Shown piece after piece: positions 1,482-2,891 of a stretch of DNA of 64,000 bases. The position numbers and the translations under genes were made by a program. The notes under the pieces are model-generated. The model worked only from the letters and a program-made list of their open reading frames with translations. It was not told the origin of the DNA and did no database searches. This DNA comes from Amphiscolops sp. MND2022. Lineage: Eukaryota. The DNA lies in contig OZ076409.1 in assembly GCA_964187785.1 (NCBI GenBank), positions 620,001 through 684,000 of the forward strand, read 5' to 3'. Numbering within the stretch: the first letter of the stretch is position 1; every line of letters starts with the position of its first letter.

Positions 1482-1635
1482 TGAAGTTACAAGGATATTG
1501 TTATTATCCACTTACCCTACCCATTTTCAATCCACTTAGGATAACATTATCTTATCCTCTTAGTTTGTTACAACGTTTACCCACTCTCAATCCACGTACA
1601 AAACACAATCATTAAATTCATTTGAGGAGACTCAC

Positions 1636-2521
1636 CTATTTATACTTTGTTATGAAGTCCACATGAGAATTCACCCATCTCAGCCCTATTTGATGGGATC
1701 CCCATACGCCTTTCTGAAGTGATGCAAGACCCAGCATCCATTCCAGTTTGCCGTCTTCTGCCACCCAATGAATGAGGATGTCGACCCCCAACAATGATGC
1801 CAGAGCATGGATAACAATCCCACACACATTTTGATCACAATTAGTTTCTGCAGAACGATGCCCGACACACTCTTCAAAACTGTCTTGGTAAATTGCTCTC
1901 AAGGCTGACTGGATTGACTCGTTCTCCATGTGTGTGAAAACAGCACTTCTCAGTTTCCCGTGATGCCTGTCATCAGCACCGATTCCATGCAACACCGAGA
2001 GGAAAACACAGTTTCCGTTTGCTGCTATTGCCTCAACACTGGCCGGCGAACGAAAGGGCAAGGCGAATTCCAGTCGGGACACCAATGTATCGGAAATCAA
2101 ACTTCGAGCACACTTCTCTTCCAGCGTTAACGTCAAGCGGCCTAAACTTCGAGATGGTAGCCCTAAACCAGACAGTTCCGGTTGACATGTGACATTGGAA
2201 ACACCGTTTGCGGCAGAGTCTCTCCAGCTTCGTTCTTAATCCAATACAATGCCAATTCTGTCTCAACCTCTGCTCCAACTTTCTCATACCACAGTTGTGA
2301 TTGAGTCCACCAAATCGTCCGTGAATCTTTTCTACCTCCTCCTCGAGATCAGCTTCACGGAGTACAGGTAGCCCACCACGCCTTAAAAGATCACCGTCTA
2401 GAGTGTACAACTTGGCTTCCTGTCGCAAATTTGATTTCATCGAATGATGACCCGACATCCTTCCTGGGTACGGCAACCCGCGTTTTCGATCAACAAGCTC
2501 CTCATAATGTTGCTGATCCAT
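1636..2521 (-). CDS. Antisense gene: integrase-type H2C2 Zn-binding domain fused to an OTU-like cysteine protease (one frameshift near 2060-2080)
   Basis: ORF 2033-2605 has YP...LRQEAKLYTLDGDLL...IH...NH.CG...W...C..C, resembling the N-terminus of Ginger/GIN-type integrases. ORF 1636-2136 has IAANGNCVFLSV...LR...W.NSHVD, the OTU Cys and His boxes. The likely start is MDQQHYEEL at 2521. Confidence 0.7.
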
Positions 2522-2891
2522 TGCAATCTGAAATTCATCAATCTTTGAATCTAGTTCAACGCGGGGAGAATGTTGAATATCTAAAGGAAAAGAACATGCA
2601 AACATGTAGACATGCCAGAAAATTAGTCTAATTTGATTTCGACTAATCAGATTTGAACAACTGTAATGTCATTTGAAAAATGCTACTTTGTTCATGCTTC
2701 CATGCTGTTCATTCATTAGTTTTTTTTGCTCATTCCCGCTCTAAATCAGTTCTAACTTCTCGTTAACTCTCTTTCTCAATCAGAAAACAATTTTGATAGA
2801 AACAACAGTTTTTATCGATCAGCTAGTTTAGCACATATATAGAACAACAGTCTCTATTATTGAGTTATTCTAGCACCGTACAAGTTCCAAG

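Follow-up and report, generated by a model that had tools for sequence, protein, structure and literature searches.

A probable antisense accessory gene joining an integrase-like zinc finger to a predicted OTU deubiquitinase in a BEL/Pao retrotransposon of Amphiscolops sp.

A BEL/Pao long terminal repeat (LTR) retrotransposon that ends near the start of a 64,000-nt stretch of DNA from Amphiscolops sp. MND2022 (GCA_964187785.1, contig OZ076409.1, positions 620,001 to 684,000 of the forward strand; hereafter the window, whose numbering is used unless a locus is named) carries, between pol and the 3' LTR and on the opposite strand, a reading frame for a protein in which an integrase-like HHCC zinc-finger module is joined to an OTU domain. 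We regard this frame as probably a real antisense accessory gene of the element, maintained as a selected and exchangeable cassette, and we infer that its product would act in trans as an integrase-docking deubiquitinase. A sequence-only reading of the window had placed an antisense gene between pol and the polypurine tract (PPT) of a BEL/Pao element, an arrangement borne out by the domains, the LTRs and the PPT (Table 1).

The antisense frame and its carrier element

Two overlapping open frames were found on the minus strand of the window copy, 2668..2033 (211 codons) and 2235..1636 (199 codons). Sister copies have 2 extra bases between window positions 2072 and 2073, and there both frames merge into 344 codons from stop to stop and encode an uninterrupted protein of 295 residues. 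The family's gene had been thought to need frameshift correction; it does not, since the 2-base gap is private to the window copy and since the 295 codons run without a break at 13 of the 21 places in the genome with at least 90% protein identity; the other 8, among them the window copy, are broken or partial. The window copy, with its 2-base gap, is dead for the accessory gene. The searches used P0001 as query, a 295-residue protein translated without any change from a sister copy with an unbroken frame, beginning at the ATG equivalent to window position 2521. In the window family the open frame continues upstream into the LTR; lineages with other LTRs do not conserve this extension but do conserve the ATG at 2521, with R at -3 and G at +4. 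Relatives at 37-68% identity likewise have open frames.

The carrier is a young BEL/Pao element of ~6966 bp (G000:C1:615917-622882), of which the window holds the 3' part; it was identified as BEL/Pao because Pfam matches to DUF1759 (124.5 bits), Peptidase_A17 (the Pao peptidase; 160.3 bits), rve (35.2 bits) and DUF5641 (106.4 bits) occur together in the whole element. Window positions 3-1481 encode the C-terminal 492 residues of pol (Pfam DUF5641 107.1, Integrase_H2C2 38.5 and rve 36.9 bits), and the pol stop, earlier placed at 1481, was confirmed downstream of these three domains. When the organism's own 1.07-Gb genome was searched with window 1500-3400, the match ended at 2882 at 18 other loci (95-99% identity), and 2571-2882 was matched twice, ~6.6 kb apart, in each copy, including G000:C1:615917-616228 upstream of the window. 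The PPT had been put at 3390, which was an error: sister copies and the element's own 5' LTR place it at 2563-2570, immediately before a 3' LTR that ends at 2882, and window 2883-3400 is therefore flanking DNA. The hallmarks of BEL/Pao elements are thus present in TG..CA LTRs, the AGTTC target-site duplication (TSD), the GGGGAGAA PPT ahead of the 3' LTR, and a primer-binding site that follows the 5' LTR and is kept in three lineages; the extended PPT block (2554-2570) is kept, and the block ...GTTCAAGGCGCGGAGAA|TGT is conserved across lineages. End-to-end alignment of the 5' and 3' LTRs gave just 2 adjacent differences in 312 positions, and the insertion is therefore young; it is also already defective, as its gag-pol frame (L031; ~1750 codons) is broken by a single in-frame stop (L031:3761-3763, on G000:C1 upstream of the window) into parts of 847 and 905 codons.

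Table 1. Features of the 3' part of the element and of its antisense accessory gene (window coordinates)
Feature	Position	Strand	Remarks
H2C2-OTU accessory protein coding sequence	1636..2521	-	ATG 2521-2519, stop TAG 1638-1636; 2-base gap between 2072 and 2073 in this copy
Integrase-like module, residues 1 to ~115	2177..2521	-	Extension with three short strands, then HHCC (H67, H75, C107, C110)
OTU cysteine-protease domain (predicted), residues ~157-295	1639..2055	-	Cys172 codon 2008-2010, His287 1663-1665, Asp289 1657-1659
Leader of the antisense gene	2522..2562	-	TTTCAG|AT (2533-2526) 6 nt upstream of the ATG; small TTGAA/TTCAA inverted repeat
GTGAGT, 5' splice-site-like hexamer right after the stop codon	1630..1635	-	Candidate donor
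Acceptor of the sequence-only reading, TTCTTTTCCTTTAG	2581..2594	-	Inside the LTR, 11 nt from the LTR edge
Spacer, pol stop to antisense-gene stop	1482..1635	.	154 nt; holds the repeated motif
Spacer repeated motif	1518-1538 and 1578-1598	+	Antisense reading GGATTGAAAATGGGTAGGGTAAGTG; direct repeat family D1
pol 3' part: integrase (HHCC, DDE core, DUF5641)	3..1481	+	Stop codon 1479-1481
PPT GGGGAGAA	2563..2570	+	Abuts the first base of the repeat common to both LTRs
3' LTR, TGT...ACA	2571..2882	+	312 bp; matches the 5' LTR, G000:C1:615917-616228
Target-site duplication AGTTC	2883..2887	.	5 bp; the same 5 bases precede the 5' LTR

The two domains of the accessory protein

The C-terminal part of the protein is predicted to be an OTU-fold cysteine protease with an intact Cys-His-Asp triad and, by prediction, deubiquitinase activity; the earlier OTU assignment holds by way of relatives, the match of the family profile to OTUD5 and the structural match to OTUD3. 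Proteins of the window family themselves scored just 15-17 bits for Pfam OTU (PF02338, cut-off 23.3; P0001, 15.2 bits), the downstream frame alone was also below the threshold (16.2 bits), and the upstream frame alone gave no Pfam match. Sequence searches returned a family of similar-length proteins at 40-68% identity, and an above-cut-off Pfam OTU domain was present in all 14 of the 14 distant matches scanned, three of which were Helitron-type proteins. One relative, P0035 (28% identity, E 1e-8 over residues 27-254), matched both Integrase_H2C2 (PF17921, cut-off 25.5; 28.7 bits) and OTU (31.9 bits), while lineage relatives in the same genome reached 27.9 bits for OTU (L062/L063), as did the database protein P0013. 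A profile of 13 family members compared with the PDB gave OTUD5, OTUD3 and OTUD1 (E 5.7e-5 to 1.1e-3), and its alignment put NGNC on the catalytic DGxC, with the Cys motif set against DGACLFRA of OTUD5.

An AlphaFold2 model computed from the family alignment (pLDDT 87.9) led to the same fold, as evidenced by the fact that all top Foldseek matches were OTU domains (4bou, E 7e-6). With VIA-align, residues 157-295 matched OTUD3 (4bou_A) at Z 13.0 over 128 residues (rmsd 3.5) and OTUD1 at Z 12.9, and 24 chains reached Z >=8, all of them OTU proteins among the matches listed; the ESM Atlas gave no usable match. The OTU triad consists of a Cys in (D/N)GxC and a His followed two residues later by an Asp, and the catalytic residues in this protein would be C172 within NGNC, H287 and D289 (H287-V-D289), C172 and H287 being invariant in the 13 aligned sequences.

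Viral OTU proteases were also among the structural neighbours (turnip yellow mosaic virus proteinase, 4a5u_A, Z 6.6), which accords with the notion that the OTU domain is a processing protease for the element's proteins, like the OTU-type/PRO proteases of some RNA viruses. We consider this extremely improbable, given that the best structural matches are the cellular deubiquitinases OTUD3 and OTUD1, that the element owns a Pao-type peptidase region, and that the accessory protein is encoded on the opposite strand, outside the polyprotein.

The zinc finger lies ~45 residues ahead of the OTU domain. The HHCC rule is H-x(3-7)-H-x(23-32)-C-x2-C; in P0001 the spacing is H67-x7-H75-x31-C107-x2-C110, and C107 and C110 are nearly invariant in the family alignment. 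Residues 2-107 of the model matched the integrase of prototype foamy virus (PFV; 4bac_A, residues 8-96) at Z 7.4 with an rmsd of 2.9 over 82 residues (VIA-align), and the N-terminal model also resembled Ty3 integrase (7q5b_A, Z 6.8) and the N-terminal domain (NTD) of Moloney murine leukemia virus integrase (3nnq_A, Z 4.8). Against Pfam Integrase_H2C2, lineage L066 scored 19.4 bits and P0013 13.1 bits, and hhalign against the element's own integrase aligned the equivalent C..C region at a weak E of 0.16. Neither P0001 nor any of the 13 relatives in the alignment gave an rve/DDE match, and the earlier description of an H2C2 module joined to an OTU domain with no DDE core was right, with Z values for the N-terminal part that are moderate. 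A Y..(Y/F)P...Y pattern, a candidate counterpart of the YPYY motif of Ginger1, is conserved upstream of the finger. A search for fused longer relatives (575-2000 residues, such as a DDE-containing ancestor) found none, which is weak evidence with the tool used.

Linkage, selection and exchange of the cassette

A genome search with the protein gave 119 matching segments, ranging in identity from 28% to 100%. Of 36 loci that were cut out, one is a degenerate fragment; in each of the other 35 the gene runs antisense to a BEL integrase, and 77-232 nt separate its stop from that of pol. The loci make up about nine lineages, designated here by L numbers, in which the protein is 37-68% and the integrase 48-98% identical to that of the window family, and the deep groupings of the integrase tree and the OTU-protein tree are broadly congruent. 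The sequence-only reading had allowed for an independent insertion, one missing from sister BEL copies or bearing its own terminal inverted repeats (TIRs) or TSD; the cassette proved to be present in all sister copies and in divergent lineages as well, and it has no bounding inverted repeats and no conserved short direct repeat (8-11 nt) at its flanks. An 11-nt direct repeat (1469-1479 and 2546-2556) was tried as a TSD, was not found in other lineages, and was treated as chance.

BEL/Pao elements are very abundant in this genome and most of them lack the gene (at least 6215 DUF5641 candidates versus 148 OTU candidates, genome-wide); in 5 of 5 other long-pol BELs examined, the 1.9 kb downstream of pol held no homologue, even when searched with an unfiltered hidden Markov model of the family. 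Of the best 150 DUF5641 matches, 4 have an OTU match beside them and 11 a match to a JmjC-like protein, which is described below.

Between lineages, the proportion of synonymous differences (pS) in the accessory gene was 0.76-0.88, which is saturated, and that of nonsynonymous differences (pN) was 0.19-0.46; the integrases of fully diverged lineages gave pS 0.78-0.84 and pN 0.22-0.28. Because synonymous sites are saturated while pN stays low, the accessory protein is constrained, somewhat less tightly than the integrase, and selection has kept the gene while the BEL clade diversified. Within families the differences were few and the ratios noisy (0.3-1.6), as expected of copies decaying after insertion.

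Mosaic elements indicate that the cassette has been swapped by recombination with distant lineages. Relative to the window copy, L053 has an integrase with pS 0.006 and an LTR that is ~95% identical, yet its cassette differs at pS 0.86 and has ~55-60% nucleotide identity, with break points just past the pol stop and just ahead of the PPT; in L047 the corresponding values are pS 0.165 for the integrase and 0.82 for the OTU gene, again with an LTR that is ~95% identical. Accelerated evolution was ruled out as the source of these diverged cassettes since it cannot saturate synonymous and spacer positions beside a near-identical pol. A third candidate mosaic, L044, which was taken to combine the same cassette with another pol, was rejected, as blastn gave 95% identity throughout, with a 216-bp deletion.

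The start region is conserved as well. All 9 OTU lineages, like the JmjC-type element, have a YAG|AT string (mostly TTTCAG|AT) 4-19 nt ahead of an ATGG start with a purine at -3, and upstream of the string are a small inverted repeat and, read in complement, the conserved PPT block. This string fits a 3' splice site and fits equally well an initiator-type start of transcription that the neighbouring U3 would drive in both directions; in several lineages this U3 carries CCAAT-like and repeated CATGTCAATCA-like motifs. On either reading the mRNA would escape the numerous ATGs that the LTR holds upstream. L065 (G000:C12:33385600-33389700), which is the most divergent of the OTU lineages, has its TTTCAG|AT..ATGG leader ~400 nt upstream of the actual open reading frame (ORF) start, where the leader opens just a very short frame, which suggests an insertion or duplication between leader and gene.

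The sequence-only reading had drawn the coding segment as an exon, with a branch-like GACTAAT near 2625, an acceptor TTCTTTTCCTTTAG at 2594..2581 and a donor AG|GTGAGT after the stop. Both upstream strings are present, and both lie in the LTR; they were found in the lineages that share this LTR and were absent at that place from those with other LTRs, so that the exon boundary is not supported. On the donor side the string stands, as TAG|GTGAGT at 1638..1630, and GTRAGT is kept across lineages, but no acceptor for it was found. Of the 9 lineage representatives, 7 have a GT directly behind the stop (as GTGAGT, GTAAGT, GTATGT, GTCAGT, GTGAGC or GTAAAA) and the remaining two have it at +1 or +4, in front of a spacer that is otherwise unalignable, and this pattern supports the post-stop GT motif as a selected feature and a candidate donor. 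A long intron in the 3' untranslated region, with an acceptor and AATAAA antisense near the start of gag, was rejected, as TTTCAG and AATAAA are present in the window family and not in L073/L074. For a short intron within the spacer, a YAG precedes the spacer motif in several lineages; the implied length in four of them is 21-27 nt, which is too short for ordinary animal introns, and the spacer intron was not adopted.

A related form of the spacer motif occurs in 8 of the 9 lineage representatives (not in L065) and in the JmjC-type element. The motif is often duplicated, lies just downstream of the pol stop and contains, in its antisense reading, a perfect G|GTAAGT, and on the antisense strand an AATAAA or AATAAT usually comes 0-30 nt after the motif. 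It was seen in L047, L052, L058, L061, L066, L062 and L068 and travels with the pol end in OTU- and JmjC-type elements. The sense-strand RNA fold of the spacer was not unusual (z = 0.21).

These data bear on the idea that the gene is a passenger, that is, a fragment of a Ginger1-like, Helitron-borne or host OTU gene captured once by a BEL element and without function for it. OTU domains do occur in Ginger1 and Helitron proteins, the nearest matches outside the family include Helitron proteins, and most BELs of this genome do without the gene, as seen both in the genome-wide candidate counts and in the five long-pol elements. A passenger would not be expected to show purifying selection over a divergence that saturates synonymous sites, or conservation of start context, leader motif and post-stop motif; moreover, the cassette has no flanking TIR or TSD, and whole functional cassettes appear to have been exchanged repeatedly rather than left to decay. 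We therefore judge a passenger very unlikely.

Proposed role, known parallels and the shared slot

We propose that the protein is made from its own antisense mRNA, with a start that would lie within the U3 end of the 3' LTR or beside it, independently of the gag-pol polyprotein. In solved intasomes the N-terminal parts of integrases touch the DNA ends and neighbouring protomers, and the PFV and Ty3 matches agree with this role; the HHCC module may dock the protein onto the element's integrase or onto the LTR DNA ends. The OTU domain would strip ubiquitin, or a modifier like it, from proteins of the element or of the host, and this de-ubiquitination could protect the integration machinery or blunt ubiquitin-dependent restriction. 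The accessory protein would in this way supply in trans what Ginger1 transposases carry in cis.

The same match to the part of integrase that contacts DNA ends and protomers in the PFV and Ty3 intasomes, together with the lack of a catalytic core in the accessory protein, would also suit a self-limiting or dominant-negative regulator, in which the DDE-less HHCC module poisons integrase multimers or occupies LTR ends, antisense transcription damps the sense RNA, and the OTU domain is secondary. A regulatory role, including one through double-stranded RNA, has been proposed for the antisense extra ORFs of plants (PMC7264820). For a mere decoy, the invariance of the OTU Cys and His and the retention of the whole OTU domain despite saturated synonymous sites would be unexpected, and the gene is intact in most copies of a young multi-copy family; we hold this explanation to be unlikely. 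The conservation of the catalytic residues and of whole functional cassettes speaks against either a regulator or a passenger as the whole story.

Several points weigh against a trans-acting, integrase-docking deubiquitinase. The window-family protein P0001 has no Integrase_H2C2 Pfam match, and the structural matches of its modelled N-terminal part (Z 4.8-7.4) fall in the middling range of the tool. Its own OTU score is below the cut-off, so that the domain calls depend on relatives, on the profile and on predicted structure. Antisense transcription, splicing and protein production are proposed from the sequence, and integrase binding, the substrate and the benefit to the element are inferred; copy-number control would fit the same anatomy. 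Lastly, many or even all of the close homologues in the protein databases may derive from the genome studied here, P0013 for instance giving the same Pfam result as L062, and would then be no sign of spread to other species.

The closest parallel to the proposed deubiquitinase is Ginger1. Its transposase is described as YPYY-H2C2-DDE-GPY/F with a C-terminal OTU (Bao, Kapitonov and Jurka 2010; PMC2836005), and in Ginger1 transposases a whole integrase is continued at its C-terminus by an OTU or Ulp1 protease. The parallel between integrase-type and OTU parts that the sequence-only reading had drawn is as published. Both systems have an integrase-type N-terminus, with a motif upstream of the H2C2 finger, and a C-terminal OTU domain in an animal mobile element. 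In Ginger1, however, a DDE core and GPY/F lie between these parts, and the transposon has TIRs, CCGG/CCGT target duplications and cut-and-paste transposition, whereas the accessory gene lies antisense inside an LTR retrotransposon that owns a complete integrase and has no DDE, TIR or TSD of its own. The accessory gene was accordingly rejected as a Ginger1 transposase, having no DDE core and a cassette without TIR or TSD. By analogy, the Ginger1 fusion may be an independent sign that integrase-type enzymes profit from an OTU- or Ulp1-type activity. Helitrons offer a second comparison for the OTU part, whose nearest relatives outside the family include proteins with Helitron_like_N, PIF1 and OTU domains (P0036, P0041); in these giant Rep/helicase proteins, which belong to rolling-circle transposons, the OTU is one domain among others, and identity to the accessory protein is only 25-30%.

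With respect to position and orientation, the counterparts are the antisense ORFs between pol and the 3' LTR of plant Ty3/gypsy elements (aORF-3R), as in Grande (gene23), RIRE2, Retand and PvRetro13 (PMC7264820). They occupy the same slot in the same orientation in most copies of a family, and a promoter is described upstream of gene23 in Grande; by that definition (an antisense ORF that follows pol, precedes the 3' LTR and is carried by most family members) the BEL accessory gene is an aORF-3R. For none of the plant ORFs has clear similarity to known proteins been described, according to that review, while the gene described here is in an animal BEL/Pao element and has two recognisable domains. 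The ORF3 genes of bdelloid rotifers (PMC5408684) are likewise acquired enzymatic ORFs downstream of pol in animal LTR elements and are shared between lineages; their cargo is DEDDy, GDSL, env-like and others, and the paper does not mention OTU and uses the word antisense for small RNAs only. Human T-lymphotropic virus (cited in PMC7264820) also has a minus-strand accessory protein with a promoter in or near the 3' LTR, but there the carrier is a retrovirus and not a BEL/Pao retrotransposon. No report of an OTU gene in BEL/Pao elements was found in the literature searched, which left out Repbase-type reports and most subscription journals, and given this scope an earlier description is possible.

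Antisense ORFs of plant elements have been known for decades, and none, according to the review (PMC7264820), is like a known protein; in the animal BEL/Pao element the same slot holds two readable domains, which make the role of antisense accessory genes of retrotransposons directly testable by biochemistry. OTU domains now tie together three types of mobile element, Ginger1, Helitrons and BEL, which suggests a functional tie between integrase-type enzymes and deubiquitination, and the mosaics point to accessory cassettes traded by recombination between retrotransposon lineages.

The slot is not limited to the OTU gene. In a related BEL/Pao lineage, L068 (G000:C7:22268700-22270880), a ~300-residue JmjC-like ORF (L068:587-1486:+) lies antisense in the same slot, ~400 nt from the pol stop; the TTTCAG|AT..ATG leader recurs there, and the PPT block is related. 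The ORF scored 24.4 bits for Pfam JmjC (cut-off 24), as a match shared by 6 of 8 relatives, with HxD...H conserved, and it has 77 diverged matches in the genome, at least 11 of which adjoin DUF5641 matches in antisense. The JmjC-like protein had no sequence match in the PDB, and its AlphaFold2 model was unusable (pLDDT 32.5); the JmjC identity is tentative. If it holds, the slot would be a general antisense expression site with exchangeable enzymatic cargo, and together with the OTU gene the JmjC-like cargo hints at an anti-silencing toolkit borne by retrotransposons. It is a possibility, though on balance a doubtful one, that in this animal BEL/Pao clade the exchangeable cargos of the antisense slot, namely the integrase-NTD-OTU deubiquitinase and the more numerous set of JmjC-like oxygenases, are erasers of ubiquitin and methyl marks that shield the integration complex or undo silencing, with cassette swaps reflecting an arms race with the host. 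An antisense ORF downstream of another BEL pol, L070:477-1424:+ (G000:C8), has a weak match to Exo_endo_phos (22.5 bits) and is probably a nested fragment of a non-LTR retrotransposon rather than a cassette.

Away from the element, the window contains an 11-kb satellite array at 37030-48260, with an 86-bp unit in ~130 copies at 97-98% identity and ATCTTG-type sub-repeats. Just upstream of the satellite are two short tandem arrays, at 34621-34996 (154-bp unit, 2.4 copies) and 35566-35857 (47-bp unit, 6.2 copies).

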